The notes below the pieces were generated by a model, which had not been told where the DNA came from, did no database searches, and was given only the letters and a program-made list of their open reading frames with translations. DNA of 35,263 nt, taken from the NCBI GenBank assembly GCA_032718475.1, contig JAUCBJ010000526.1, positions 1 through 35,263 on the forward strand. Direction: 5' to 3'. A program made the position numbers and the translations under genes. This document shows positions 4,226-35,263 of the stretch, piece by piece; position 1 is the stretch's first letter, and every line of letters starts with the position of its first letter. Origin of the DNA: Nemertoderma westbladi. Taxonomy: Eukaryota; Animalia; Xenacoelomorpha.

Positions 4226-4697
4226 ATAAGCATCGTATTATACGAATAAAGATGGCCATTATAAAAACCTTTGCATCTGAATTTTATATATGTTGTAGAG
4301 TTTGTCGAGCTTGTTCGAATGAGCTATCGATGGTCACAATTGGCGCACTGGTTCAAAAGTTTTGTCCACTCAAAGTTTTTAATATATTGTTTTCACTTTT
4401 CGTGGCCGGGACCATGTACGTTACCTACAAACTAAGTGTTCTTTGTAAATCAATATTGTTATAATTTATTATTATAACAAGTCAATATTTGTACAAAACG
4501 CCTACATTAATATATGTATGTATGTAGTAGTAAGTGGAGCGGGTTGTGAATACTGGCGGTAAGATAATTTCTAAAGCAAATTGTAAGTAATTGTAATTGT
4601 GAGTGGAACAAAATTCGTACTGTAGGAACAAAATGTTGCATCTTTTTGCATTGCAGATTGCACGGCAGAGCTGTTTATAATTTATTTATTATTACAG

Positions 4698-5759: not shown

Positions 5760-6521
5760 GATAATGACCAAGAAGAAGTAGCTCTGGCTGCCGCCCAAAC
5801 CGGCCAAAATATGTTAAACAAAAGAAAAGGCAATCCGGATCATGTTCAGGGCTGGGAGAAGATTCAACAAAGAGTTGATGGATTTGTTGACTTCTATCGA
5901 AACTGGGATGAATATGTTGAAGGATTTGGCGACCCGAATACCAATTTTTGGTTGGGGTTGGAGACGATCCACAAGCTGAGTTACGGCGGGGTGAAGTTGA
6001 GGGTCGATTTATGGTTCACTGGAAGGGGGTTTAAATATACCAATAATGAGGATCCCATTAATGCCAAGCAGTGGAAGAATTACAACAACGAACACAAATA
6101 CGCGGAATACAAGAACTTCAATATCGGATCAGCTGCAACTAATTACACCCTACATATATCCGGTTACCATGGTACTGCTGGTGACGCATTGGAGTTGATC
6201 AACAGGCATCCATTCTCTACCAAGGACCGCGATAATGATTGGTGGGACTCCGGCAACTGCGCCGTAGATAATACTGGGTCGTGGTGGTACAAGGAGTGCG
6301 CGTACAGTAACTTGAACGGAGAATATGGGATGGAATATGATATGAATATGAATATAATACGGAATAAAGGACCATATTGGTTTCATTTTACTGGAAGGAA
6401 TCCGGCTTCTCGAGTTGAAATGAAGATCCTTTGGAATGAAGTCCTTTTTCAGGCTCGTACTAACGCCGGTCGTGGAACCCACTCCAGGAAGGCAGTCCTC
6501 GTCGAACCCTTCCTTCGTTAG
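5760..6521 (+). CDS. Fibrinogen-related domain protein (FReD/ficolin/angiopoietin-like), copy 1
   Basis: IQQRVDGFVDFYRNWDEYVEGFG, FWLGLETIH, FSTKDRDND, C..GSWWY..C..SNLNG and EMKI motifs; frame is open from a ttttag acceptor at 5760. The coiled-coil-like segment from acceptor 5659 is out of frame and has a stop, so functionality is uncertain. Confidence 0.85.
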   Translation, partial: DNDQEEVALAAAQTGQNMLNKRKGNPDHVQGWEKIQQRVDGFVDFYRNWDEYVEGFGDPNTNFWLGLETIHKLSYGGVKLRVDLWFTGRGFKYTNNEDPINAKQWKNYNNEHKYAEYKNFNIGSAATNYTLHISGYHGTAGDALELINRHPFSTKDRDNDWWDSGNCAVDNTGSWWYKECAYSNLNGEYGMEYDMNMNIIRNKGPYWFHFTGRNPASRVEMKILWNEVLFQARTNAGRGTHSRKAVLVEPFLR

Positions 6522-7432: not shown

Positions 7433-8152
7433 TTATATTTTAACGCCTCTGTTTGAATATCGCCAGTTATTGGGTTTCTGGAACGGTTCCTGTGCCAAAG
7501 CGAGGGAGCGAAGAGGAGTCCTAAATAAACCGGAATCAGGAGCTGTCATACAAACCCGGATATATTCCGAGCGATCAGTCGCCCTGACTACGGGGTTCGG
7601 GTAGACTCGGGGGAAGCGGGAGTGGGGTCGGAATGATTCCGAGGTGGCGGCCCGGAATACAGGAGGTATATCAAGCGATATCCCCGCGGTAGTATCCGGG
7701 GTTACAGACGAGTCTCGGTTGAAATTCCTCCGGTAAACCGACGTGTAGGGCCGGGTACCTCGCCCAGCTGTGTCACTCACCCACTCGATGTGGTTCGCAG
7801 ACAGATGCTGCCGCTTATCTCCGTAGGATTTAAACTTTCCAAACTTCTCGTCGAAATAAACCCCGTAGTCGCGCGTCTGGTGTCGGTTGTCGTGGAAAGA
7901 AAAAGGGTTTCCAGTTTTATATTTTCGCCTCGATTTGTTTAGGAAATCCGGCGGTATTCTGTAGGTAGAAGCGTCATATCTTTGCGAAAGTTCTAGAACA
8001 TTATTGTTGCCAGAGTGTCGGTAGATATCTGTCATCATTTCCCCTGCAGTCGTGTTCTCTCGGATTGCCAATGGTGGCGCCTCGTTTCTATGGTAATACC
8101 ACGTGTGGTCTATTGGTAACCATGGCGACCAAGGTTGGCTAGCTTTCGGCAT
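7433..8152 (-). CDS. TEX36: HDNR-domain protein, testis-expressed protein 36-like
   Basis: Intact 239-aa ORF with NPFSFHDNRH, SVYRRNF, RFPRVY and C-terminal TPLRSLALAQEPF..PNNWRYS; a 5'UTR splice acceptor (ttattacag) lies about 27 nt upstream of the ATG. Confidence 0.8.
   Translation of the reverse strand: MPKASQPWSPWLPIDHTWYYHRNEAPPLAIRENTTAGEMMTDIYRHSGNNNVLELSQRYDASTYRIPPDFLNKSRRKYKTGNPFSFHDNRHQTRDYGVYFDEKFGKFKSYGDKRQHLSANHIEWVSDTAGRGTRPYTSVYRRNFNRDSSVTPDTTAGISLDIPPVFRAATSESFRPHSRFPRVYPNPVVRATDRSEYIRVCMTAPDSGLFRTPLRSLALAQEPFQKPNNWRYSNRGVKI
8116..8129. promoter_or_regulatory. RFX X-box-like motif inside the TEX36-like CDS
   Basis: gtaaccatggcgac is close to the RFX palindrome GTTRCCATGGYAAC. 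Confidence 0.4.
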
Positions 8153-8455
8153 ACTCAGAGAAAATAGTTCGTCGAATTACTGTAATAATGAAGAAACATT
8201 TTATTTCATTCTACATCTAACACTAGCAAATTTATATAAAGATTTATATAAATATTCCCACTCGAGGTAAGAGCCGTACATAAAAATATACAACATAAAA
8301 AAACCGGTTTTTAATAACGATAATTTTGATTAAATTTGAAAATAATTACAAAAAATAAACAAATCCACAAACATGCTAATATTAATACAACCAACCCGAG
8401 AATAAGTCGGCCGTTAATTAGATTGGCATTAACGGTGTATTGATTACCCCTCCGT

Positions 8456-9323: not shown

Positions 9324-9903
9324 GTTACAAAGCTGAAAGAACAGAATTCAGAGTTGAAAGAAAATATTAATGGGTTGAGTGACCAAGTAAACAATATAAA
9401 TACAAACCGAATTAACCAAGTCGATGTAAATACAAACCTATCTGTCCAAGTCTATGTAAATAATGAGCTTAAAGAACAATGTTAGTTTTTTAACCAAAAT
9501 CTTGTTTGGAGGGGAGATAAAGATTCAACAAAGAGTTAATGGATCTGTTGACTTTTACCGCACCTTGAACGAATACGTTAATGGATTTGGCGACCCGAAT
9601 ACCAACTTTTGGTTGGGGTTGGAGACGATCCACAAGCTGAGTGAAGGCGGGGTGAAGTTGAGAGTCGATTTGTGGTTCACTGGTGAGGGATATAAAGGTG
9701 ATGGCGATAATATATGGGAGTCGGTGGATTACAACAACGAACACGAATATGCGGAATACATCAACTTCTCTATCGGATCAGCTGCAACTAATTGTCGCCT
9801 ACATTTATCCGGTTACCATGGTACTGCTGGTGACTCATTGGAGTATCACAACGAGTCTCCATTCTCTACCAAGGACCGCGAGAATGATGCTTATGGGACG
9901 CCA
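9324..9903 (+). pseudogene. FReD paralogue, copy 2, frameshifted and truncated
   Basis: Same ctaacag|GTTACA acceptor as copy 1; coiled-coil-like VTKLKEQNSELKEN.., +1 frameshift near 9470, then FBG motifs closely similar to copy 1 ending at FSTKDRENDAY where an antisense LINE begins. Confidence 0.85.
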
Positions 9904-11120
9904 TCAAATATTCAAATATAATTTTTTTCAAATAATGCCCAATAATGGGCGCACAATAAATAACAAAATTTGTACATGCACATTGGCAAATTTAATATAT
10001 AATTAAATGAAACTCAAAATAGCCAGATCGTAGCTGAAGCTAGTATATGAACAGGCTACTTTGATATGCCCAAGTCCAAGAAATATTAAACTTTTTTTCA
10101 TTACTTGTGAGGTCTTAAATACGGACAGTTTTAAGAGATAAAGAGATAACAGTACAGGGTGTGGCGGGCGGGCCAGGGGGGTGGGAAGAGGAGGGCGTAG
10201 GAGCATGAGATCAAGGTACAAGGGAAAGGGGAAACGAGAGATTGAAAAAAAGAAAACGACTCAAATTGTACGATAATTGTTGTTTAGGTAAACAAAATTT
10301 CAGAGTTACTAAAAGAACTATGACAAAATTCAGAAATAAAATAGAAATAAAACGAATGAAAAATATGCTCATGTTAAATTTTCAAATATATATTTTTTTA
10401 ATTTAGATCGAAATATTGACTTGGATGGGATAGCCCGGATAGAATTTGACAATGAGTTCCATTGAGCAGGTCCTTCATATTTAATTGATCGCTAGGCCAC
10501 CAAAAGCCTTACTTTCGGGACAAAAAAAAGTATTATGATTATTACGAGCTGACCTGGTTCCATATGAGTAAATATTGGATACAGGCTGAAATAAATGTTC
10601 TAGTGATTGAGGACTTTTTTTAATGGAAACAGTATACATAAAAGTTAACAACTGAAAGTAATATAATTAAATAATAAATTAATATAATTTGTCAATTGGA
10701 AGGATCGTAAGCTTTTTGTACAATGGACCTGCGGAGATTCTGTAGTGACTAAAAGTTATAGCCTGCAACAATTTGTTCACTTTTATCTTAAGCGGTCTAA
10801 TAATAGATGGGCAAGCATTTCCCCAGATTAAAAGCCCGTACGAGATGTATGGGTTTATTAAAGAGAAGTACAACGAACGAAGTATATATTCTGGGAAAAT
10901 ATGACGAAGTTTAAAAAATATCCCAATTGATTTGGAGATTTTGGCCAAAACATATTCGACATGAACTTTCCATGATAGTTTACTGTCTATATATATTCAT
11001 AAATACTTGCAATAAATACAATTTTTAATTTCCTTGTCACAGAGTTTTTATACTCAACTGTCTGACTGTGTACTGAATTACTGTATTTGTTGGTTGGCCC
11101 TCGGTTATTTTAATAACCTT
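9904..11120 (-). mobile_element. 5'-truncated CR1-group (L2/Crack-like) LINE
   Basis: IDSKLSWKVHVEY..KISKSIGIFFKLRH..LYFSLINPYISYGLLIWG RT C-terminus, long 3'UTR and a (tatttgaa)2 tail at the left end. Confidence 0.8.
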
Positions 11121-11124
11121 TGTT

Positions 11125-11440
11125 CATGAGTATAAAGAGGAAATACAGAAACGAGTTTAATGCCGAAACTACGACAGTACGAATGAGTTTAACGCGGAAA
11201 CTACGAGCGAGTTTATGCGGATACTACAAGCGAGTTTACGCGGGAATTACGAACGAGTTTACTCAGAAAGTACGAACGAGTTTGCGCAGATACTACGAAT
11301 GAGTATACGCGGATACTGCGAACGAGTTTACGTGGATACTGTGAACGAGTTTACGCGGATACTGAGAACGAGTTTACGCGTATGCTACGTACTAGTTTAC
11401 GCAGATACTACGAGCGAGTATATGTGGAAACTACAAGCAG
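11125..11440. repeat. Degenerate 23-bp tandem repeat, about 12-13 copies
   Basis: Consensus cgagtttacgcggatactacgaa; ends about 30 bp before the ORF1 ATG of LINE copy A. Confidence 0.9.
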
Positions 11441-11468
11441 TGACCTTCCCTTTATGCTGAGAGGAATT

Positions 11469-13308
11469 ATGCCTACTTGCTTTGACTGTAAAGCAAGCTT
11501 TACGAAGCGTGATGCCAACAGTCTATGTACTAAATGTCGAAATAGACGCCTTTCAACTTCAACCCCGCATCACTCCCAACCTAACTCTGCCAGTATCAAA
11601 TTTGGGCCCACACCGGAGACGCGACGGATGTCTACCAGTTCGGTTTACAATGCCCACAATGGATCCGAAATCGCCAGTGATCTAGATGACCCCTATGGCG
11701 ATGAGCGATGTTTTCAGGAAGTTGATGCGTCTGCCCCGCCTTGGGCTCGTAGTATGCTCAAGTCTCAACTTAGAATGGAGAAAGAAATTGCCAATGTGAA
11801 CGCACAGGTGGCTTGTCTAAGTAACAGGATGGTGGTTATTGAGGAGGAGAATAAGATAGCGAGGGTGGAAGTCAGGTCTTTAAAGGCAAACAATGAACAG
11901 CTTTCAAAGAGATTGGAGGATGTGGAACAGGAGAATCTCGATCTTCAAAAAACATGCGCCAACCAGCAACGGTTTTTGTGAATCAGTTGATAGGAATCAG
12001 CACGCACGGAACATTGTGTTTGTTGGAGTATCTGAAGATGAAGCAATTGAAGGAGTTGAGAAAGACGAGGAAAAGATAGGAAAATCCTTGATAAGATTGG
12101 CATCAATCCGGATTTCAGCTTCACACAGCTGCGTTTGGGTGAAAAGATTGCTACAGGTAGTACACCCAGGGCCCTGCTTGTTTGTCTGGGTCAGGCAGCT
12201 CCCAGTCCTAAAGTTATTCTTGAGGCTTCTAGGAAGTTGAAAGAGACTCCCAACTTAGAGTCAGTCTACATAAAGGCAGATCAGCACCCGGGTGTAAGAA
12301 TGGAGATAAACAGGTTTCGAGCTGTTGCACGAGATGCCAACCAACGTCTGGAGAATGTTGGTCAGGAAATTGTTTTTGATCCTAAGGAACGAGCAGTTAA
12401 CGAAATGGGGTTGTTATTGATTCGTATAAGCCAAATTTTTAACTGATTTTAGCGGTATATCACATAAATTATCTTTTATTACATGGAATATTGGCAGTGC
12501 TCGCACCAAATTAGCAGATCCAGACATTATAGCATTTTTCCAAGATTTTGATGTGATTTGTCTGCAGGAAGTTAAAACTTCCTTCATAGGTACCTTACCC
12601 GGTTTCAGAACTGTAAGTAATATTTCCAACAAGAAAGCCCACTGCGGTGGTGTTGCAGTATTTTTTAGAAACAATATATTTGATTCTGTTGTATGTATTG
12701 AATTGAAACATGATTTTGTGTATTTTAAATTCGAATTTTGTATGTATTTTAACTTTTTCTGCGTTTATATTGCACCACAAGGCTCAAGCTATGAAAATCC
12801 TGAGATATGGGCCGACATGCCATGATAATGCTGTATCCAGGTTGCACAATGATATCTCCTGGGAATCATGAAGGACTGTCTGCTCTGGTATCCCACGATC
12901 TGTACCGCAGTATTTGCACTGGGATTACATCCTCAAATGTGGGGATTCCAACTTATTATGGACCAAGATAGACTGGATGGGCAATATCTGTAATGATTCC
13001 CCAAACGGTGGAACCATGCCTTCAGATGACGAGTTCACCAACAAGCACTTCGAGATGCTTCTCTGCCCTAAATCCTCCATCCATACAGCCGATCCAATTA
13101 TAGACACCTGTGGTTTGTCTAATGTGGACATCCTTGACCAGCTGATAAGTGGACCAGAAGTGACGGAGGTATTGAATAACCTTAAAGCAAATAAGGCCCC
13201 TGGGCCAGACCTTCTCCCTTCTTACCACCCCTTCTTTTCAAACTCCTCACCCCAGGCTGGATTTTAAGCTTGGTTACATTGTTTAATATTATTTTTTTTA
13301 CAAACTCC
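11469..13308 (+). mobile_element. LINE copy A (older, degenerate), 5' part: ORF1, APE start and linker
   Basis: MPTCFDC..CTKC, coiled coil, RNIVFVGV and VYIKADQHP ORF1 pieces (frameshifted); ITWNIG..DVICLQE endonuclease; internal deletion; LWTKIDW..KAPGPD..WILSLVTLFNIIFFTNS. Confidence 0.9.
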
Positions 13309-13430
13309 CTGTATCAATCTCCCTGTTCTGACATTGGACCTACCTCCATACCTACCCACCTACAGAGTATTAATTCTGTAGTTGGATAGCCTAAGCCAAT
13401 ACATAATCTGATAATTAATAAAAAAAAAAA

Positions 13431-14364
13431 ATGCCGAGATGCATTGATTGCTGTAATGTATTTTCAAAGTTATCTTGCAACAGTTTATGTTCTAAATGTA
13501 AAGATGCGCGATTGGCAGCACCCCCATCTACTCCAAATCCTCAAACCATGCCGACCTTTGGTATCGATACTTCTACACCGGTCCCAGCCGATCTAACCAC
13601 GAGTACCGGTACCAGCTGCTCAACTAGCACTGTTACTACCGGTAGTCGTTCTCTATCGGATGACGACGCAACACCGGCGTGGGCTATTAAAATCTTGGAT
13701 TCAACCACGAGATTGGAATCCCAACTCCAGTCAGTCCAAACTCAAATGGCCACTCTAAATAACCGGGGTAGAAGCGGAGAATAAGCAACTACGAAAAGAA
13801 CTCGGGGACGTCAGGGTGACCAACATCGGTTTGGAAACCCGGATGAATAAGCTCGAGGAGGAGAATGGATCCCTAAGGCACTGTTGTACGAACCAACAAC
13901 GATTCTCCGAGTCCATCGATAAGAGCATGCGCGCCCGCAACGTAATAGCTCTTGGCGTTCCGGAGAATGAACCATTGGGGGATGCAGAAGATGATCTGGC
14001 AAAAGTTGACCTTATATTCAAGTGCATTAGAAAAGATCGCATCGAGAAGTCGTTTCGGCGTATTGGTGCCTTCAACGTTGCACGGCCAAGGCCAATAATA
14101 ATAACACTTGGTGCGTCTGCACCAGACCGCAAGGAAATCCTCACCAACTCGAAGTTACTTAAGGATATCCCAAGCTGCGAGAAGGTTTATATAAAGCCTG
14201 ACATCCATCCCGCGGTTCGCATGGAATACAAGCGACTCCGTGAAGTTGAGGCGAAGGAGAAGGAAAAAGGGGACAATGCTGGGCGCAACGTCTGTTATGA
14301 TTTCAAAACTCGATCAGTTCTTATTGACGGACAACCAATAGACTCATTTAATCCGGTTTTTTAA
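13431..14364 (+). CDS. LINE ORF1 (C4 zinc finger, coiled coil, RRM-like domain); one frameshift near 13765
   Basis: ORFs 13431-13784 and 13816-14364 are together colinear with copy A ORF1 (PxWA, NQQRF.ES.D, RNV...GV.E, VYIK.D.HP.VRME). Confidence 0.85.
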
Positions 14365-17300
14365 ACTCGCACCGCAAGAACACTTTTACTGAGCTAGGAA
14401 TTTTATCATGGAATATCGGCGGTATCCACGAGAAATATAAACTGTCCACCGTCGAAAATCTCTTTACCAAATACGATATGGTTTTTATCCAGGAGATAAA
14501 ACTGTCATATAATTTCAAGGTTGCCGGTTTCGAGGTATACCGCAGTGTTTTAGGCGGCGATAGCCATCGAGGCGGAACTGCAATACTATTACGCCATAAA
14601 TTTGTATCACCCGGGGTAAAAACCTTTAGGGAGAAGGAGATATGTGGAATCCAACTGCCAGATTTCCCATCCACGATGTTTATATCTGTATATGATCCAC
14701 CTTGCTCATCTCCCTATGCAACCGCAACGACCCTGGCTAAACTGCAATTGATGATAATTAATAGCCCTCCGTGGATGTCTTTCATCATAGCCGGAGATCC
14801 AAACGCAAGGATGGGGGACCTATCCTCGTTTTCCGATCATTTAATCTCATACAGAACACCGCATGATACCCTGTGTAATAGCTACGGAAAGAACTTGTTA
14901 CATTTGTGCAAATCATCAAATCTTGTAAATCTAAGTTATTCGAGTATAGCTGGAAAGCGACACGGCGGGGAACTAACTTTCAGGCGAAAATCAGGTTTTA
15001 TATCAGAGCCTGATCGTTGTCTTGTTAGCAGGGAGATCGTATCAGCGATTACAAAATTCGATGTAATCTTAGATCATTTACCCTCAGATCATGCTCCGTT
15101 GGAAATCTTTATCAAGCTGGTGAATGAAACAAGTACGATTATACTAGAGAAGAGCTCCGACATGTTGGGTTGTTATAACCACATATTATGCAGCGGTAAT
15201 GGCGTCAGGAAATGTAGAAAAGGTATCAAAGCCAACACCCTATGTAAAGAGGGCTTTATAGAAATGTTAGGACCACCAACTCTTGCCGAACAATCCACCT
15301 CAGGGAACAACCCACACATAGACACTCTGATAGAAAGTTTCACCGAGCAAATTTACAAAACTGCCAAATCAAATAAATGTAAAACCCCAATCCTGGCTAA
15401 CAGCACAAACAGACAGTCCTCAGTAGTCCGCCAGTGGACCGAGTTGGCTATTCCTGGCAATGAGGCATCCCTGTGGCATCGAATTGGATGGAAAGGGGAG
15501 CTTACAGAGGGATCGGACATATCCGTCACACCATCTGACACTGAGTTCAAATCACATTTTGAGTCCCTTGGATATACGAATGCGGGAGAGATACAGACCA
15601 ACCTTACTGAAGATTCGCCTTACATCCCAATCTTAGACGATTCGATAACGATAGAAGAGCTCACTTCGGAAATAGACTCCCTCGATGATCGAAAAGCAGC
15701 CAGACCTGATGGAGTCGGATCTGCCGTTTTAAAGTTTCTCTCATATCAGTGGATTTTATTATTATTACATATATTTAATGTTATTTTTAGCAGCGGAACT
15801 TTCCCCACAATGTGGTGTTTTAGTAAACTCGTAGCGATATTTAAGCGAGGATCACGTTCAGCATGTACTAACTACCGAGGTATACGAGTTATAAACACTT
15901 TATTAAAGGTGTTTGACGGAATTTTAGCGAAGCGTCTAATAAAATGGGCGAAACCTTACTGCGAACAAGCAGGGGCACAACGCTCTCGTTCTTGTATTGA
16001 ACATATACTAACACTAAGACTATTAATAGATTATACCTTTTTTATGAAGGAAAAACTATTCCTAGTATTTATCGACCTTAGCTCTGCTTATGATAATGTC
16101 TCCAGATCAAAATTGTTTTCCGTGCTGAAACGCATGGGGTGTGGTAGAATTATGCTTCGTATTTTGATTGCTATGTATTCTAGAACATCTAGTTTTCTGG
16201 GAGATAGTGTCATTCGGTCAGATACGGGTGTTCTACAAGGGTCCCCGAGCAGCTGCTTTCTTTTCGCCATATTTTTGAACCCCCTTATAGCCCTACTACG
16301 GCGCTGTCTACCAGACAGTTTTTTCAAGTGGCTCCACATCCTCATTTTGATGGACGATTCAGTAATCATTGCAACAACACGGGAACGAGCTATTGAAAAA
16401 CTGAAAATTCTGTTGGGTTATTGTGCTGAGTATGGTATGATAATAAATATTAAAAAAACAAAATTTATGGCTGTTGGAAGGTGTACTTTATCGGACAGGA
16501 CGGATATCTGTATTATATCACCGGACAATGAGACATTAATCGTTAAAAATTGTGACTGTTATGTGTACCTGGGGGCTCCCATAACACAGGACGGTAAGTT
16601 GGAAACCGTGTATAATATTCATTTGACCGAAAAATCTAAGCAAATAACCAAATTCTATGGTTTCCTTGATAAACACAACTTTATGCCAGTATGGTTGAAA
16701 TTATATGTATTTAGAGCCACAATAATTTCCAGTTTGTTTTACAGCTGCGAAACCTGGCTTGGGAGTCAGCCTATTGAGATATACTCAAAATATTGCAAGA
16801 TGTTGTGCAGTACAATAGGGGTTCGTCCAAACACAGTGCGTGAAACACTATTCACTGAAACTGGCGAACCAAATCCGAAATCTCTAGTCGAGCACAAACA
16901 GCGAAAATTCCTGATAGGAATTCTAGCTAAACCAGATTTACATGAACCTCTAATTATGGTGCTTGATATGTGCAGGCAGTCCGGGACTAGAATGGCCAAG
17001 ACGATAGACAAGATCGTTGCAGACGACCGGAATCCTTTGCAAGCCGGGCGTACGACTATAAAAACCACAATCGCAAGCGCAACTTCCACGCGAATGTCAA
17101 TATATCGTGAGGTGAACCCGAACCTAGACAAACCGTCAGTCTACAGCTCAGGGTCCATTGTAGATGAGAAATTGAGAATCAGCTGGTCCCGCTTTCGCTT
17201 GACGTCCACAAACCTGGCCGTAGAGCGTGGACGATGGAGCCGTACCGACCGAAACTCGCGAATTTGTGCTTGCGGGGATACCCAGACCGAGCTACACATT

Positions 17301-17441
17301 CTGAAAGATTGTCCTCTTCTAAAGAACGATCGGGATTCCCTTCACCCATTCCGCATAACGTCTCTCAATGACTTGCAAAACCCTCACACAATAGGCTTAG
17401 TACACCGCGCACTATGTGTGCTCGAAGGCCATATTGGCTAA
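14352..17441 (+). CDS. LINE ORF2: APE endonuclease, reverse transcriptase and C-terminal Cys/His motif
   Basis: Open from 14352 (SWNIGG at 14406, first ATG only at 14478); QE, GDPNAR and SDHAP APE motifs; NYRGI, FIDLSSAYD, GVLQG, LMDD and YLG RT motifs; RICACG..HILKDC. Confidence 0.95.
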   Translation, partial: SGFLNSHRKNTFTELGILSWNIGGIHEKYKLSTVENLFTKYDMVFIQEIKLSYNFKVAGFEVYRSVLGGDSHRGGTAILLRHKFVSPGVKTFREKEICGIQLPDFPSTMFISVYDPPCSSPYATATTLAKLQLMIINSPPWMSFIIAGDPNARMGDLSSFSDHLISYRTPHDTLCNSYGKNLLHLCKSSNLVNLSYSSIAGKRHGGELTFRRKSGFISEPDRCLVSREIVSAITKFDVILDHLPSDHAPLEIFIKLVNETSTIILEKSSDMLGCYNHILCSGNGVRKCRKGIKANTLCKEGFIEMLGPPTLAEQSTSGNNPHIDTLIESFTEQIYKTAKSNKCKTPILANSTNRQSSVVRQWTELAIPGNEASLWHRIGWKGELTEGSDISVTPSDTEFKSHFESLGYTNAGEIQTNLTEDSPYIPILDDSITIEELTSEIDSLDDRKAARPDGVGSAVLKFLSYQWILLLLHIFNVIFSSGTFPTMWCFSKLVAIFKRGSRSACTNYRGIRVINTLLKVFDGILAKRLIKWAKPYCEQAGAQRSRSCIEHILTLRLLIDYTFFMKEKLFLVFIDLSSAYDNVSRSKLFSVLKRMGCGRIMLRILIAMYSRTSSFLGDSVIRSDTGVLQGSPSSCFLFAIFLNPLIALLRRCLPDSFFKWLHILILMDDSVIIATTRERAIEKLKILLGYCAEYGMIINIKKTKFMAVGRCTLSDRTDICIISPDNETLIVKNCDCYVYLGAPITQDGKLETVYNIHLTEKSKQITKFYGFLDKHNFMPVWLKLYVFRATIISSLFYSCETWLGSQPIEIYSKYCKMLCSTIGVRPNTVRETLFTETGEPNPKSLVEHKQRKFLIGILAKPDLHEPLIMVLDMCRQSGTRMAKTIDKIVADDRNPLQAGRTTIKTTIASATSTRMSIYREVNPNLDKPSVYSSGSIVDEKLRISWSRFRLTSTNLAVERGRWSRTDRNSRICACGDTQTELHILKDCPLLKNDRDSLHPFRITSLNDLQNPHTIGLVHRALCVLEGHIG

Positions 17442-17822
17442 TATTAATAAGCCAATAAGGTTCTCATATTTATTTATTTAGTTGTATCCATGTATATTTA
17501 GTTATTTAATTATTTATTCTAATCAATGTATCGTACTGTAATGTCTGTTTAACGTTAATTATTGAACCATTCGGTAGTGAATTGCAAATTGTTCAGTGGC
17601 TCGCCGAACTTCGTGGCCCGCCCAACATTGCTTTGCTCATTGTTTTTGAAACGATTAATATTACTGTAACGCTCTGTTTGTATATATTTCATACCTATCT
17701 GTAAATTTCGCGTATATAGTGTAGTACATGTAGACAATCTATTTAAAATCTTGATATCCATTTGAAATTGTATATATTTATATTTATATCTATATATATG
17801 TCAGAAAGTTATTTATTCTAAT

Positions 17823-18339
17823 TTGGCTGTGGGGCGAGCCACGAAGTTGGCGGAGCCTTAGCGAATTGACACTGTTAGGGGGTGGGTCAATTTATGCAAA
17901 TAGTTGTCGTCGTCGTTGTCGTCGTCGTCGTCGTTGTCGTCGTCGTCGTCGTTACGATTTTGACATGCTAATAACTTTGTCGGATTTAAAGCTGCCAAGT
18001 TGAAAATTTGTAGGTATCAATATGAGCAAAAGTTGAGATTTTTGAGAGACTTTCAGACACCATCAGTGCAATGGTCTCCCGCTAGAGGGCCACATGTCTA
18101 AACATTAAATGCCCTCCCATTTCTTTGCTTTTAATCCGTTTAAGCTGAAACTTGGCAGATATGTATTAGACCATTAGCTGTGACTTTCAAAGGAGGCGAA
18201 TCCATCTGCAGTTCTCCAGTCTGCCGCTAGAGGGCCAACGTGACTATTTGCATAAATTGACCTACCCCCTAACAGTGTCAATTCGCTAAGGCTCTGCCAA
18301 CTTCGTGCTGCGCGAAGTCCCCACTTCGTGTACTATTAG
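17823..18339 (+). mobile_element. Helentron/DINE-like non-autonomous element in the LINE 3'UTR
   Basis: 65-bp subterminal inverted repeats (17840-17904 and 18243-18307, 63/65), (GTC)n microsatellite at 17906-17950, 3' hairpin cgaagt-cccc-acttcg, flanked by tattctaat repeats; a related decayed end lies at about 17598-17645. Confidence 0.65.
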
Positions 18340-18510
18340 TATTCTAATACTACAATGTATTGTATGTATGTTAATTTAAGATAGATCAATGCGGTGGACA
18401 GTGTATATATTAACCAGACAATGTAACGGTACCTTCATATATTTTGTGTTCTTGCGGTGCGTCTTTATATGTTGTTACATATACAATGTCAATAAATATC
18501 TAATCTAATC

Positions 18511-18985
18511 TATCCCCTTGAGTGGAGCTACAGTCGGTTAGTAGCAGTACAAGAGAGGTGCTAAGAACCTATGCTCGAACTACAGGGGTGTAAGTGTTCT
18601 CAACACAGTGTTTAAGTTGAATGATAGCATATTATGTAATCGTCTGCGTAAGTGGCAAACCCCCAGTTGTGAGTAGGCCGGTGCCGCACCAGGGAGAGGT
18701 TGTGAGGAGCAGATTTTTACACTCAGACTCTTGATAGACTACGTGATGTGTAAGAAGAAAACCCTCTATATCGTTTTTGTTGATTTTAAAACAGCATATG
18801 ACCGTGTCCCTCGTCTTAAACTCTTCACTCTACTGAAAGAGCGTGGCTGCAGTGGTCAGATGCTTTGTGCCCTTTTTGCTATATATTCCTGTACTGTTGG
18901 GATCATTGGAACAAATTTCATTAAGTCCATTATCGGAGTCCTTCAAGGTTCTACTAGTTCCTGCTTTCTTTTCACCATATTCCTA
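18511..18985 (+). mobile_element. LINE copy A, continuation of RT
   Basis: YPLEWSYSRLVAV, NYRGVSV, QIFTLRLLIDY, FVDFKTAYD and GVLQGSTSSCFLF are colinear with copy B ORF2; contains a stop and a frameshift. Confidence 0.9.
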
Positions 18986-19029
18986 TACTTTTTACTTCTA
19001 AAACAAAACAATCAAAACATATTAACACA

Positions 19030-19148
19030 TATTAACTATTAAATATTAACTATTAAGTATTAACTATTAAGTATTAACTATTAAGTATTAACTATTAAGT
19101 ATTAACTATTAAGTATTAATTATTAAGTATCAACTATTAAGTATTAAC
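19030..19148. repeat. 14-bp tandem repeat (tattaactattaag), about 8 copies
   Basis: Direct reading. Confidence 0.95.
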
Positions 19149-20660
19149 AAGAAAAACGGGAATGAACCTAAAAATCCCCAAAACGGGAATAATCAAGCGT
19201 TTCACTTTTGCCAAGTAAGTGTTGTAAACGAAACGGCGGCCATCGTAATTCAATCTGAAATAACTTTCAGAGTTAATTTTAAGACCTGCATATTGTGGCT
19301 TCAATTTATAATATCCGATGCCCATTAACCCTTTAATAATACTAGATTCTTGGGATTCAACTAACTTCCTCAGGCGGTTTATGGTATCGTCAATGGGTAG
19401 GCCAGGGCTAAAGTCTTTGATGGTTCTATTCAAACTTTTAATTGGCTGATTATATAGCATAAGCCTATCTCGCCATTTTAGAAGTGAAATATTACAGTTC
19501 TTACCAATCACAGGAAAGATAGAATCAACTAGATAGTCCAAAATTCGAGAATCTATACCCTCAGATGTGTACTTCCCAACAACGTCAAACGTATGCGTTA
19601 ACATGTCATCACTTAGAGCCAGGGCACTTACATCCTTCTTTATCTCAGCAATTGTATGTTTTGGAAGACCAATCTCACAAGCGCGAGTATAAATGTTGTC
19701 TAGAATATGCTCTAGTCCCCGGAGATGCTTTGCCTTTGGAAACAAATGCTCAAAAGCGTTAGAAATCGCTTGTTCTCCATCAGTCATGTAATATTGGAGA
19801 TCGGTTTGAAGGATAGTGTCAGCAAGCGGTTGCAACACAAATCCCAGCATGTCCCTTGAAGGGATGAGTCCACCTGGGCCCAAAACTGCAGGGTCTCCTT
19901 CAAAAATTGTTAGCCTGTAACACGTGAAGAAACCCCAACAACAACAACAATATTTGATATGGTAAACACTGTGTCAGCACCGAGTGGAAATGAATGTGGA
20001 GTAGATGTATATATAACAGCCGCTTGAAGTTGTGAATCAGTATAAAGTTGGTACAGAAATTCCCGGTGGCTATATAGAAAATCACGAATGAATTCGTCAC
20101 CAGGGTTCTGCGACGCTTTCATTAAGAATATGTTTATATACGGGTCTAGTTGTTCTTTCATTCGATATTTGTAATTCGAAATGTGTTTATTGGTAATATG
20201 GGACTCAAGACCACCTTCTAAAATAATAGTAGAGTCTCTCTGAACATTGAGCTCAGTGGCAAGAACAGATGGTTTAGTGTGTTTGACTACAGGGTCTGTA
20301 ATGGTCTGCTCCACGCACCCTAGAGCTTCATCATTTAACACATGACGTACCCTCTTTTGTGGAATTAGCTCAATAACAGAAGATGAGTCTTCTTCGTGGC
20401 TGCTTTTCTCATAGACGAGTAACATACGGTCTGCATGTTTTCCTGGAACCGTTACAAAAGTCTTGTATATACCTTCAACACCTGTGCGATATATGTGGCG
20501 AAAAATGTCATGTGTGTCATATTTAATAGTTGGCCCCTTCCTATAGTACCGAAACTCTATTTCTTTTGGGTCATGATCTGTTACGAATGCAAATGGACAT
20601 TCATTGGTTTGCAAGGGATATGTATATGTTTTTACACGATCCCAATTAGATAGTAACAAT
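19137..20660 (-). pseudogene. MULE/Mutator-like transposase, degenerate
   Basis: Two out-of-frame ORFs: LGADTVF (first D), YMTDGEQAISNAF..FPKAKHLRGLEH (second D; CxxH lost its Cys), NQPIKSLNRTIK (catalytic E replaced by K). No TIRs seen. Confidence 0.7.
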
Positions 20661-21055
20661 CGCGCAAGTTCTTTAGTCTTAAATGGTTTGCGTAAATCTT
20701 TGAGAGATATGTAGCGTATTCGTCACTACCTGTTGGGTTATTCCCATAGTCAAGCAATAAATCCTCACCGCTATTCGACATAATATAGTAACTGTATATC
20801 AATATATAATTAGTTAATTAATAAACACAAATGTTGTTATATTTATGATTATACTCAATATTTATTACAATTAAGCATTGGTTTCCAAATTCAATATATA
20901 TTATTATTATTTATGATCAGGTACCGGTACCAGTAAGGCAGAAATAAAACCAATCCCACAATCCTCATTAGTAAAAAGATAGCAGTATATTTTTATTTTA
21001 AATTTCCCGCCACCACATATATGTCAGCACAGATATCATAATATTCTATTATCAT

Positions 21056-21873
21056 ATGCACACGAACCGTAAAGCCAGACCAAGACATATAGAGAAACTA
21101 CTGCGTAAGAGCCAAAACGGATTTCGACCAAGTAGATCAACAATAGCTCAGATACTTGCACTACGGAGAAGTGAAGGAGTTGAAGGAATTAAGTCAAAGA
21201 ATCTCCCCGCTATCATGACTTTTGTGGACTTCAAGAAGGCATTCGACTCCATCCATAGAGGTAAAATGCTTGAAATCCTAAGAGCTTATGGAATACCAGA
21301 AGTAATTGTTGCTGGCATTGGATTGTTATATTGTGACACAGAAGCGCAGGTACTCTCACCAGATGGTGAAACTGAGTTTTTCTCAATCCTGGCTGGCGTA
21401 CTGCAAGGTGACACATTAGCACCATTACTATTTGTAATTGTGCTGGATTACGCAATGAGGACGGCCACAAAGGGTGAAGACCTGGGATTCACACTTCAAG
21501 AATGCAGAAATAGTAGATATCCGGCAGCTACAGTCACAGACACCGACTTTGCGGATGACATCGCCCTGCTCTCTAATACCCTGGCAGATGCACAGCTTCT
21601 ACTAAATAAAGTGGAGATTAAGATTCAGATGCAGATTAAGATTCAGTGGGCACTGCTGGCGAAGTAAAGACGAGGTCATACCAGATCTACTTTTCTGGCA
21701 ACCAACTCATGGAAAGCGTAGTCGTGGACGACCGGCCATAACATATATAGATCAACTTGAAAGCGATACTGAACTTAGGAGAAACGAAATTGCGACAACT
21801 ATGAAGAATCGGGAAGCCTGGAAGGATCTCATTTCCACTGTCCGAGTTCGCTCGACCTAGTAGTAGTAGTAGT
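21056..21873 (+). mobile_element. RTE-clade LINE, 5'-truncated with internal deletion
   Basis: QNGFRPSRST, FVDFKKAFDSIHR, GVLQGDTLAP, DFADDIALLS; then GHCWR..RSRGRP..YIDQL..REAW C-terminus and a (tag)n tail at about 21858-21872. Confidence 0.9.
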
Positions 21874-25700: not shown

Positions 25701-26251
25701 CTTTGTAGGTGCGGTATACAAATGGCTTCGATTACTGGATAATTACTTGAGAGCTTACCAGTATACAGATGGTTGCAATACCAACGTAGTAGTTTTACCG
25801 ATAATATATATTTTTTGACCTTTTGCATACTCATGAGACTTGTTTCATTGGATTCATATCAGCAAGATTTCATTCACTCGGACTGTACGAGTTTAGCGGC
25901 GGTTACATCGAACCAAAAGATTCGCTATTTTATGATGATAAATTGTGGGGGGTACTTCAGGGACTTTGCTTAGGAGATAGAGAGAAACGGCCTGTGTTTG
26001 GTGACCTTAACGCAAGAGTTTATCATCCGAAAAATTCGCATGGCCAAGAAGTGGACCGGGTCTGTGACGACGCCGATTTCATTATCGTCAATAAGGTCCC
26101 TCCTGCTACAAGTGACCTTACTTTCCGAAGAAAAGAAAGGTGGATTAGTCAGATAGACCTGTGTTTAGCAAGTAAGTCGGTAAACAAAGATATTGAATTA
26201 AAGGTAAATCAAGATTTAACAAAACCTTCGGATCATGCGCCTTTGGAGATA

Positions 26252-28121
26252 CAGTCGGGGTCTCAAAGTGCATCTGTTCTTTGAGATTTTCTCAAAGAAC
26301 TAAAAGTGTCTCAAATTTCCAAAAGTGGTCCAAGAAAATGACAAAGTGTCCTCAAAGATTTCAAAGTAGTACTGTCAGTCATTTCATACAGTTCTGCCTG
26401 AAGCTGGCTATGGTATGGGGTATATTGACTTTGACTATAGGGTAAAATATAAGTAATAAAAACCTCTATAAATGTTTATTCAATTATTTATTAATTTATT
26501 AATATTGATTATTGCAGTAATAAATATTTGTTACTGCAGTAATAAATATTTATTACTGCAGTAATAAATATTTGTTACTGCCGCAGTAATAAATATTTGT
26601 TACTGCCGCAGTAATAATATTTGTTACTGCAGTAACTAATATTCAATACAGCAGTATTTTTTGTAGGTATTTTTATTGTTTCATAGAGGATTTTATTAAT
26701 TTATATTTTGACTCTTTAGAGACGCCATAATTGCGGGCTATCGGAATGTGTTGGTGTTTGTGTCATAGACAGTTTGTCTGTTGCCCTATCTATATTAATG
26801 TATAGTGCTAAAACTGTACTATTTAAATTTGTTTAGCCCATGTGAACGCCGAATACCTTTACCAATGCATTTCAATGGTCAACCAGCCATACTTTGTCGC
26901 ACTGTAAATTGTGTTATACAAAGTAAAGAATAACGATAGGGGCAGGAATAAAGATAAACGATTCAAGCGCACTAATTGGCTGTTCCCATAGATGTTTTAG
27001 GCATTGTTGGTGCGCAATGCATATGGTCAGAGCGACCGCCCAGTCTGCCAAAATCGATTATGTAATCAAATGGTACCACAAGCCAAGCAAAGCATGTGAC
27101 AGTTCTTTCCGGCTCTGCACCTATTTGTTTGAAGGTCGCCGTCCGTGGGTCGATACTCGCTAGCTGTGATTGATAGCTTAAACTGGGTGCCGCTTTGCCA
27201 GAATGCGGTACACATCAATTGAATATCAGGTAAACATTTAAAATATGCTCAAATATAAACGCCAGCGGCAGGGGATATTTTAATATCTCTATTAAGTTAA
27301 AAACAACACAAGAGTGTAGCCGTTCTATCGTACTTGAAAGTCGAAAGCCTTTCTTAGTTTTTAAGAAGGAATTCTCGCGCTCTCGTCACCATAGTTATCA
27401 TATTAATTAATCAGTTAAGGTAGTACGGTTTGACCTGAGGTGAGTAATGAAATGAATAACAAATGTTATTACAAGCTTTCTCCCAACAGGGCTTCTTTAG
27501 GTCATTATAATGAAACTGCATATACACAGAGATACTACAGTGCAGTTTCTCTTATATTAATTGTTAATCTTATATTGTATTATGTTATTAAAATAATCAA
27601 TCTTGTCAAGCATTAATCTTGTTTCACTAATTATGTTTCATGTATTATTTTAATGAATGTTTTTTAGAAAGACTTTAGGGTGCCGTAAATTAAATTTGTA
27701 CTTGCGACCTAAAACCCATCCCGTAATGACCTCAGGAACCTCAATTTTATAAATTAATGGGAATATAGCTTCTATGCAACAACTGGCCAGCACACAAGTA
27801 TCACTTTGTTGCCCGCATAATATTGTTCCCCGAGAATGCCTCTGCCTCTCAGTTAACTTACCACGAGCTGTCAATCAGGAATACCTCAGAGTTTATTTTC
27901 TCAAAGAATTAAAAGTGCCGCAAACTACCTCAAAGTGACATTTCTCAAAGATTTAAAAGAATTCAAAGTGCCTAAAAGCAGGAAATCACTTTGAGATTCC
28001 CAACTAAAAGTGTCTACAAGAATTCAAAGCGGCCGTTGGGAGTAATGTAATGACTTTTAGACACTTTTAGAAAAACTTTGAGAAAATCTCAAATAACAGA
28101 TGCACTTTGAGACCCCGACTG
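26252..28121. mobile_element. Tc1/mariner-type non-autonomous element, 1870 bp
   Basis: 46-bp TIRs cagtcggggtctcaaagtgcatctgtt(c/a)tttgagattttctcaaag (45/46), TA duplication at 26250-26251 and 28122-28123, no transposase ORF. Confidence 0.9.
26513..26635. repeat. 22-bp palindromic tandem repeat, about 5 copies
   Basis: Unit cagtaataaat-attt(g/a)ttactg; lies between weak inverted repeats at about 26438-26475 and 26680-26716. Confidence 0.85.
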
Positions 28122-32819: not shown

Positions 32820-35263
32820 ATAATATCATTTAATAGGGTGTTGGAGAACCTGGGGTGGACATTGCTGACCATAATTCCCCGTCTGCTCTCTAGGTATTTC
32901 CAACAAACACAGGCGTTGAATCGATCGGGTCAGTACTTTCCCTTCACATCTACTGATCTTACGAGGCTATCTGTGCTACGGTACACACGGGTGACTCTGC
33001 CAGTCAGCCAGTATTTACGTGGGTAACCCTCGTCTACAATAAGGACGTAGTCATCTTCTGCTACATTACGGCTATCACTGAACCACTTAGTTCTTAATGT
33101 TTTAGAAGGTATGTACTGTTCTATAAAGTATCTACGAAATGAATCAGCTAATTTCTGAGTCAAATGCCATTGCTGTTTATGATAATCGTCTGCTTCTTTG
33201 ATGATTGATACTGGTACCATTACAGCTGGCCTTTGCATCAGAAAATGAGCTGGTGTTAGTACACCCATGGAATGAGGATCTGAACTTATTGGAGTAAGTG
33301 GTCTACTGTTAGTTATACATTCTACTTCCATCAATAGAGTTCGTAAAACTTCTTCAGACACATAAACTTTCGCTGGTAAAACACTCAATAAGGCGGTTTT
33401 TGTGCTACGTATAAGTCGTTCGTAAGCACCTCCATACCAGGGACTCTCAGGCGGGTTATGATCAAATTCTACTTTGTTTACTTGTAAACAATGATCAACT
33501 TGAGTTTGATTCCAATCAGTTATAGATTTCTTCAGCAACTTCGACGCTCCAATGAAGTTAGTTCCTTGGTCGGATCGTAACCCTTTGCTTGTCCCAAATC
33601 GCCCAAAAAACCGTCTCATTGCTAGAATGAATGAATTGGTACTAAGGTTGCTCAGGAGATCCAAACATATTGCACGAAAGGTTAAGCAAGTCCAAATCAA
33701 CCCCCACCGTTTTGTGGTAATGCGACCACGTGTGACTAGCATTGGTCCAAATACATCAACGCCTGTATAAGTGAAGGCTGGCTCATAGCAACTTAAACGA
33801 TTCTTTGGTAAATCAGCTTCTCATTGGGTGAGTGGTTTACTGAAACGTTTTCTACACATAATGCATCCTTTGAGAATAAAATTTAGAGCCTTTCTAGGCT
33901 GGACTAAGAAATATTTACGTCGCAGTTGACTAAGGATGTGTTCTCTACCTATATGAAATAGGTTGTAATGAATATCCTGTATCAGCATCCGTTGTATTCT
34001 AGGGTCACGGATGATGATAGGAAATATCGCAGCGGCCGAAAGTGGTGCATGAGATAGTCTGCCTCCAACACATAGCAGACCATCTAGGTAAATGGTTGTC
34101 AATCTATCATTGAGTTTCATGCTTGGGTTCGTCTTTAGTAAATCGTAATCTTGGGGTTGTTGAGAACGTTGTACTGTAGCTAAAACTTCTCTCTCTGTCA
34201 CAGAAACTTCCCCCACAGTAACACGACCACAAAAGTACTGACATTTGTCATTTATGTGCCACATCCACAACCGTTTTAAGTATGTAACAGCCCAGCAAAA
34301 ATGTTCCCATGAGGAGTAATGATCCAAAGCCCTCTCCAAAAATGGTGAAAGATGGTTTCTGTCAGAATTATCTTTAGCTGATTCAGTAACTTGTACCTTT
34401 TCTGTTACTGTAATTAATTTTGATTTACTTGGTTTACCTTTCTTTCTAATTTCCGCTCCCGTGGCTCCCTTGCGTAGATCCTCAGTTGTTAGCTGTCGTG
34501 GCCATTTACTTTGTGGTAAGTGCAAAAATGATGGGCCTTTAAACCATTCAATTGTTGAGTTCAACTCTTTGGCGGAGGCACCCCTCGAAGCTATATCTGC
34601 CGGGTTAATCTCTCCTGGACAATATCTCCACTGATGGAACTTTGAAGTGTTCAAAATCTTCTCTCTTCGATTAGAAACAAAGATAGAGAATTGACATTTA
34701 GTATTTGATAAGTATTCCAACACCAGAAGCGCATCAGTGTGGTAAAATACTGTTAGATCAAAGTCTAAATACTCTAAGACATTATTGGCAACATCTGCCG
34801 CATATACTGCAGCTTGTAACTCAGCACGAGGCATCTTATCCTTGAGATATTTCGAAATTACCTTTGATTTACTTGTCATAAGAGTAACTTCCACATCGAC
34901 CTCTATTGTCGTTTCCTTTCGGAGATATGCTACAACTCCTAAACCCAAAGAACTGGCATCACTAAAGACGTGTAGTTGGTAAGGCTCATTTAGAGAAGCA
35001 TCCAAAAAATATGGTCTAGGAATTGTAATATTCTCCAATGATGGTAGCTCTTTTTCCCACTTCCACCAGTCTTTCAAAATGTGTGGGGGTAATGGGTCAT
35101 CCCAACCATAGTCTTCCTCCCACATGCGGCCCACTAAGTTACGTGCTACCAATGCCACTGGACTGACGAATCCAAGCGGATCAAAATTAGAGCTAAGTAT
35201 ACTTAAACACACTCTCTTACTTCGTTTTTCATCATTTCCGTCATTTTCATCATTTTCATCGGT
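32820..35263 (-). mobile_element. BEL/Pao LTR retrotransposon pol (RNase H/Peptidase_A17 region and integrase), runs off the window
   Basis: FDPLGFVSPV, LHVFSDAS, PRAELQAA, NPADIASRG, HHCC (H..H..CIMC), GVDVFGP, SDQGTNF, PWYGGAYERLIRS, NSRPL; one in-frame TGA at 33821-33823 and a frameshift near 32940. Confidence 0.95.

Follow-up and report, generated by a model that had tools for sequence, protein, structure and literature searches.

How the second open reading frame (ORF2) of a long interspersed nuclear element (LINE) is translated is an open question (PMC3894237, PMC5009743; here and below, cited papers are used as far as excerpts of them extend). This question is raised by a LINE in a stretch of 35,263 nucleotides from Nemertoderma westbladi (contig JAUCBJ010000526.1 of assembly GCA_032718475.1; hereafter, the window). 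In this LINE, which we call the window element, the first methionine of ORF2 is residue 43, downstream of the first endonuclease motif (residue 19). An earlier note on this DNA, made from the sequence alone, had proposed that the ORF1/ORF2 junction is a -1 frameshift site, and that a segment behind its slippery heptamer pairs with the 3' untranslated region (UTR) of the same RNA. We analyzed this pairing, its recurrence in related elements and the explanations that might account for it.

Pairing of the junction with the element's 3' end

In the window element, the heptamer GGTTTTT is followed by the spacer TAAACT, whose TAA is the ORF1 stop codon, and then by the 5' arm of a helix that we call helix 1 (coordinates in Table 1). 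The 5' arm had been claimed to be the exact reverse complement of a 3' UTR segment, and on direct check both the complementarity and the coordinates were right. Leaving aside the terminal repeats of a miniature inverted-repeat transposable element (MITE) insertion, no exact inverted match in positions 13400-18520 exceeds this 16-mer in length. Its chance expectation is 4.8e-6 when the 30 nucleotides behind the heptamer are compared with the 1,061-nucleotide 3' UTR, and 0.003 for a match from anywhere to anywhere within the element. The 3' arm is indeed a GC-rich island in an AT-rich UTR, as described in the note (62% GC, versus 37% for the UTR). Its reported distance of about 50 nucleotides from the end of the element also holds, with the end fixed at 18512-18514 by contigs from two samples, whose flanks differ beyond this point.

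These sample contigs come from public runs X1-X4, among which X4 has no coverage at the 3' end. Both arms are identical across the contigs that cover them (X1, X3 and X4 for the 5' arm; X1, X2 and X3 for the 3' arm), so that within-family covariation of the arms could not be seen: the sample contigs contain no differences over them. Because 501 nucleotides of the 3' UTR are a MITE that other copies skip, the native distance between the arms is approximately 3.56 kb, not the 4.06 kb of the window copy. The MITE is missing from the contigs of two samples (X1 and X3), in which 17827 is joined directly to 18329.

Helix 1 is predicted to form in the element's RNA, and is kept in the minimum-free-energy (MFE) structure of the whole element. 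We also found a nested helix 2, which the earlier note had missed. It comprises 11 exact pairs (14441-14451 with 18392-18402), one mismatch and then 5 A-U pairs. An 11-nucleotide match was reached in 74 of 20,000 shuffles, and the whole-element fold retains 15 of the 16 pairs of helix 2.

Relatives and their junctions

A protein search yielded 20 relatives at 33-40% identity among 25 matches, and the alignment of relatives led to 68 metagenome loci and 5 loci in prokaryote bins. The junction is present in 8 of the 68 metagenome loci (L002, L005, L006, L010, L011, L018, L043 and L044). One of the 5 prokaryote-bin loci (L069) belongs to the family, without the junction; its contig, assigned to a bacterial bin, probably represents contamination from the host. 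No relatives turned up in two scans of viral contigs.

We compared 9 junctions, namely those of the metagenome loci, with L043 and L044 counted once, and two in the window: that of the window element and that of an older LINE into which it is inserted (the host element). At every junction examined, the endonuclease starts in the -1 frame. The seven nucleotides before the ORF1 stop fit the X_XXY_YYZ pattern under a relaxed rule at 8 of the 9 junctions, and under the strict rule at 5 of the 9. As background, 149 (3%) of 4985 in-phase sites in five ORF2s fit the relaxed rule, and 7 fit the strict one. The 8 fitting junctions use five different heptamer sequences. GGU and GUU are tolerated as XXX in -1 slippery sites (PMC3542737), and the GGU of the window element is such a tolerated deviation from a pattern that otherwise stands in phase at a -1 overlap, as in a -1 frameshift cassette. 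The sole junction missed by the relaxed rule, in L006, has U_UUU_UCC one codon upstream, and a site of this type has been reported for Podospora (PMC5009743).

The first methionine of ORF2 is residue 43, 90 or 156 in the families with pairing, and most have no AUG before the endonuclease; in L043, a methionine stands just ahead of the first endonuclease motif. We also considered a local hairpin as the frameshift stimulator and rejected it, since no fold at any of the 9 junctions was better than those of shuffled sequences (z scores of -0.5 to +1.8). The four 3' islands examined likewise have no local fold that beats shuffles. The missing local structure favors the distal helix as stimulator, yet it also means that these elements depart from the architecture of barley yellow dwarf virus (BYDV), in which the internal loop of a local bulged stem-loop pairs with a distal apical loop. 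The frameshift layout proposed in the earlier note is conserved across junctions, and we think it very probable that -1 frameshifting occurs in these LINEs.

Pairing in related families

The earlier note had suggested a search for complementary 3' UTR segments in other families. The comparison is based on the five families with a complete 3' UTR, either their own or that of a sister: the window element, L010, L011, L043/L051 and L005. We left out L006, L018 and the host element, which have no 3' end of their own, and the 3' UTRs of L003, L007, L012, L013, L021, L025 and L036, which have no known junction. Four of the five families have the pairing, with different letters at the same offset; L005 does not. 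On this sequence test, the outcome favors the proposal of the earlier note.

In L010, the helix has 13 exact base pairs, or 14 with a G-U pair (1133-1145 with 4312-4324; chance expectation 7e-5), and is kept in the whole-element MFE structure. Its 3' island is also found in the sister L008, inside a 25-nucleotide invariant block, although other invariant blocks exist too. The L043/L044 junction matches the 3' UTR of L051, L052 and L060 over 13 exact base pairs (chance expectation 2e-4), and the L043 and L051 groups are sisters in the tree. L011 has a helix of 3+7+4 base pairs and a further helix of 9. The latter (4595-4603) covers the ORF2 stop codon, and a ribosome finishing ORF2 would open it.

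The predicted long-range helix begins 5-7 nucleotides behind the heptamer in the four families (6 in the window element, 6-7 in L010, 5-6 in L043, and 3 or 7 in L011), and one of the four is lost in a whole-element fold. Folds begun 60 nucleotides before the heptamer keep the helix in the window element, L010 and L011. The 3' arms lie 16-87 nucleotides ahead of AATAAA and within about 100 nucleotides of the tail in every case; the distal partner is thus kilobases away and near the 3' end, as in BYDV.

We scored the duplexes against dinucleotide-shuffled UTRs, using 60 shuffles (25 for the window element). The four pairing families have z scores of -8.2, -7.6, -5.4 and -3.8, the last being that of L011, while 142 non-cognate combinations of junction and UTR have a mean of -0.09 and a standard deviation of 1.26. 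When a 22-nucleotide query was slid over 900 nucleotides around the junction (against the last 300 nucleotides of the UTR only, for the window element), the start 4 nucleotides behind the heptamer ranked 1 of 91 in all four pairing families, and 31 of 91 in L005.

It is important to consider to what extent these families are independent. The window ORF2 shares only about 32% identity with its L010 and L011 counterparts, and the arms of the window element, L010/L011 and L043 differ in sequence and belong to three separate branches of the tree. Because L010 and L011 have 43% identity in ORF2 and a common core in their arms, they are not fully independent of each other. Taking the families together, we are confident that the long-range pairing is real and selected.

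Additional matches were observed outside this comparison. The L002 junction can pair with the L008, L010 and L069 UTRs. In L069, a 3' UTR island (2618-2628), 7 nucleotides before the conserved GTCAATAAA, is an exact 11-nucleotide complement of the L002 junction; on sequence grounds, this island predicts what the missing junction of L069 should contain. A 14-nucleotide match between the L018 junction and L037 was set aside as chance, since it falls within the flank, upstream (5') of a truncated copy.

The ORF1 stop of L005 is part of a UGAUG overlap, which places an AUG right at the start of the endonuclease, and its neighbor in the tree, P0011, begins at the same place. Two slippery-like sites occur at 327-360 of L005: U_UUU_UCC, followed by a stretch of A residues ahead of the stop. 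Perhaps the L005 lineage, represented here by one locus, went over from frameshifting to reinitiation and lost the pairing.

Proposed mechanism and points against it

We propose that the RNA folds back, such that the GC-rich stretch of the 3' UTR would pair a few nucleotides downstream of the heptamer that precedes the ORF1 stop. Most ribosomes would terminate translation there. In a ribosome whose decoding sites are occupied by the heptamer, the duplex would be located at the mRNA entry and would stall translation, and some ribosomes would then slip back by one base. In an intact copy, counting from coordinates, the product would be a fusion of ORF1, endonuclease and reverse transcriptase (RT) with about 1,340 residues. 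Helix 1 has its 3' arm outside the coding sequence, so the arm could pair anew once each ribosome has passed.

The spacing agrees with the earlier note's statement that -1 stimulators begin 5-9 nucleotides after the heptamer, a range that is given in PMC3542737. Long-range stimulators of frameshifting have been documented (PMC3542737, PMC5009743), and a plain oligonucleotide annealed to the mRNA can induce frameshifting (PMC1616946). With this geometry and these precedents, it is probable that the duplex with the 3' end stimulates -1 frameshifting. In that case, the enzyme would be made only from transcripts with an intact 3' end, of which the last 100 nucleotides would be needed. That this gating acts as a quality check, and perhaps also favors copying in cis, is a more tentative proposal from the same considerations, and one to which we give somewhat less than an even chance.

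Several observations weigh against this mechanism. The fifth family, L005, has no pairing (z scores of -0.2 and -0.7), and L002 has no partner within its 113 nucleotides of UTR, which end before any AATAAA. The L011 helix is imperfect, the whole-element MFE structure replaces it by other folds, and its z score is no better than those of two of its non-cognate combinations (-4.6 and -3.9). In total, 5 of the 142 non-cognate combinations have z scores of -3.8 or below, four of them among relatives with a common GGGU(R)AG core. The L043 and L051 arms are on different, decayed contigs, which are 79-81% identical over about 360 nucleotides. The L018/L037 match demonstrates that lengths of 14 nucleotides arise by chance in 241 kb. 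Some 3' UTRs without a known junction (e.g., those of L003 and L021) have no GC island that is obvious by eye. Finally, plain helices, which the ribosome has to open, may stimulate frameshifting only weakly.

Alternative explanations

The chief alternative function for the pairing would be a fold-back that brings the 3' end and poly(A)-binding protein to the ORF1 stop and shields the RNA, with its apparent 3' UTR of 3.5 kb, from nonsense-mediated decay, with the heptamer and stop alone shifting the frame. We view this explanation as unlikely, although it agrees with much of the geometry and is compatible with a stimulatory duplex, and both may hold. Decay is suppressed by engineered fold-backs in which RNA 28-50 nucleotides behind a premature stop pairs with the poly(A)-proximal region (PMC2689704). 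In the LINEs, the ORF1 stop adjoins the heptamer at 8 of the 9 junctions, and the 3' arms are close to AATAAA, at the distances given above. However, the engineered effect acted at tens of nucleotides from the stop and faded gradually (PMC2689704), and therefore a decay shield does not explain the fixed offset of 5-7 nucleotides in all four families. Moreover, the ORF1 stop of L005 is likewise followed by a long stretch, yet this family has no pairing.

Another function might be packaging or replication, where looping of the RNA would bring newly made ORF1 and ORF2 proteins to the 3' end of the RNA that encodes them, for use in target-primed reverse transcription, while the frame would be unaffected. 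The location of every 3' arm near the tail would suit this function, as would the nested helix 2, which makes a larger structure than a stimulator requires, and the L011 helix over the ORF2 stop. On the other hand, translation of ORF2 would already finish close to the 3' end, at the ORF2 stop, such that a tether at the junction should add little, and the 5' arm always begins at the distance expected of a stimulator. We consider a packaging signal quite improbable.

Still less probable, in our opinion, is the translation of ORF2 by termination and reinitiation as in the LINE SART1, with the helix holding the post-termination ribosome, or factors of the 3' end, near a non-AUG start. SART1 does use a UAAUG overlap together with a downstream RNA structure (PMC3894237), and the UGAUG of L005 is comparable. 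But the family with this overlap is the one without pairing, whereas the pairing families mostly have no AUG before the endonuclease (the L043 methionine is just before the first motif), and reinitiation would not be expected to keep five distinct heptamers of the X_XXY_YYZ type phased with ORF1.

An origin by chance, or by erroneous inverted copying in a single insertion, is largely refuted and has a negligible probability: matches of 13-14 nucleotides do arise by chance in pooled loci, but both arms are unchanged in contigs of other samples, and the arrangement recurs, in different letters, in three further families, at the low chance expectations calculated for L010 and L043/L051 and with the top rank in each sliding scan.

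Relation to known systems

Reverse transcription of a chromosomal retrotransposon such as the window element is nuclear, and for this reason the "traffic control" logic of viral long-range pairings is not directly transferable to it. The closest parallel in geometry is BYDV, along with red clover necrotic mosaic virus and pea enation mosaic virus RNA2. The earlier note had cited BYDV as a precedent, and PMC5009743 bears this out: as in the window element, a -1 site gives access to the polymerase, and the partner is situated close to the 3' end, some 4 kb further downstream. The difference is that the distal apical loop of BYDV pairs with a 6-nucleotide internal loop of a local stem-loop (PMC5009743), while the LINEs have a bare duplex of 13-16 base pairs at the stimulator position. 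Antisense-induced frameshifting resembles the LINEs in that a plain downstream duplex drives the shift, with spacing that sets its direction and level; it differs in its use of an artificial 2'-O-methyl oligonucleotide in trans, mostly at a +1 site (PMC1616946), rather than natural RNA in cis.

Among retrotransposons, TRE5-A and TRE3-A of Dictyostelium are non-long-terminal-repeat elements with an apurinic/apyrimidinic endonuclease (APE) and RT, and their ORF2 is said to need a -1 frameshift (PMC5911963). They differ from the window element in host group and targeting, and the excerpts of that paper mention neither the anatomy of the slippery site nor pairing with the 3' end. In SART1, translation of ORF2 depends on an RNA structure behind the ORF1 stop; its AUG reinitiation with UAAUG coupling, for which the excerpts mention no long-range partner (PMC3894237), resembles L005, not the window element. 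As far as literature listings and the openings of abstracts extend, we found no LINE with pairing of the junction to the 3' end or with a frameshift stimulator at the 3' end, and excerpts of PMC1965478 and PMC11203168 added none; most subscription papers and Repbase Reports lie outside this scope. Stimulators at kilobase range are thus known from plant RNA viruses, and within this scope none was found in print for LINEs.

With regard to classification, RTEX (RTE-X) and Proto2 are clades that, like the window element, have two ORFs, APE and RT. By eye, the NYRGI, Q-x-G and LF.(C)F.D segments of the window element are RTEX-like, and we presume the same of its C-terminal LxVETGRW...C..H motif. 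At the catalytic motif of the RT, LMDD replaces YADD in all 21 aligned proteins (residues ~670-676 of the window ORF2). The 9 RTEX references and the Proto2 references examined have YADD or FADD, never LMDD (PMC10294476, supplement 23). Membership in Proto2 was dropped, since the YADD and QFGFK of its references are not matched by eye (PMC10294476, supplement 23). The LMDD family may be an unclassified clade, as judged from a comparison of its motifs to those of RTEX and Proto2. For this family as a whole, we lean slightly toward the following generalization: LMDD-type LINEs are widespread and fuse ORF1 to endonuclease and RT by a -1 shift, their sole stimulator is a bare duplex with their own 3' end 3-4 kb away, and lineages that regained an AUG, such as L005, dropped the pairing.

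The window element and its surroundings

The window ORF2 matches the Pfam families Exo_endo_phos (1.6e-10) and RVT_1 (2.3e-26), as is expected of an APE-type LINE. The element has no long terminal repeats, and the sample contigs have its 3' end in common at several sites and include one empty site, which is also consistent with a LINE. Its 5' end is unsure, since contigs from other samples start at 13406-13424. ORF1 of the window copy is broken in frame near 13758, where contigs of three samples carry 8 extra bases. We found no Pfam family for ORF1 at an E-value of 0.01 and no convincing match in Pfam or PDB. Pieces resembling the MITE occur at 48-89 and 2480-2502 of the window. The 3' ends of most relatives have a common terminal motif, (T)GTCAATAAA, followed by differing microsatellite tails (ATCT, AATAC, ACT or ATAC).

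The window element is located within the RT region of the host element, whose 3' end and junction partner were not found within the window. A 23-nucleotide tandem array (11169-11467) is just ahead of ORF1 of the host element. Elsewhere in the window, 318-2233 is a satellite whose 22-nucleotide unit is palindromic (identical to its reverse complement) over most of its length, and 5760-6521 and 9460-9921 are two fibrinogen C-domain genes, or fragments of such genes, in tandem (Pfam PF00147). These nearby genes suggest an animal host.

Table 1. Positions in the window of the features discussed in the text
Feature	Positions	Strand	Remarks
Slippery heptamer G_GUU_UUU	14355..14361	+	Phased with ORF1; UAA stop (14362-14364) adjoins
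Helix 1, 5' arm	14368..14383	+	16 bp; 6 nt behind heptamer
Helix 1, 3' arm	18446..18461	+	GC-rich island; 30 nt before AATAAA
Nested helix 2, 5' arm	14435..14451	+
Nested helix 2, 3' arm	18392..18408	+
Window element, full-length APE-RT LINE	13316..18514	+	TATC flanking both ends (13312-13315, 18511-18514)
ORF1	13431..14364	+	Cys-rich start, coiled-coil-like middle, conserved basic C-terminal part
ORF2	14352..17441	+	1029 open codons, -1 frame relative to ORF1; AP endonuclease, RT, C-terminal Cys/His motif
MITE	17828..18328		501 nt, high-copy, long terminal inverted repeats; 3' UTR insertion in window copy
Element 3' end	18491..18514	+	AATAAA and (ATCTA)n-type microsatellite tail
Host element, older LINE	~11460-13315 and 18511-19000	+	RT 53% identical to window element
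Host element junction	12433..12442	+	A_AAU_UUU then UAA; same -1 layout
HDNR-domain ORF	7433-8176	-
MULE transposase remnant	19137-20722	-
Distant RT fragment	21002-21667
Endonuclease fragment of third LINE family member	25805-26284
DUF5641 ORF	32930-33820	-

Implications

For the question of how LINE ORF2 is translated, this family offers an exact and testable answer, namely a slippery site with a partner of 13-16 base pairs in the 3' UTR. If this answer is true, a stimulator that acts at kilobase range as a bare duplex, in a chromosomal element of an apparent animal genome, would widen what counts as a stimulator. A decay-shielding fold-back, if true, would likewise be of interest. Under frameshift stimulation by the duplex, the synthesis of the enzyme would be tied to an intact 3' end, which would offer a route to quality control and cis-preference: a chromosomal element would check that its RNA is full-length before making its enzyme.

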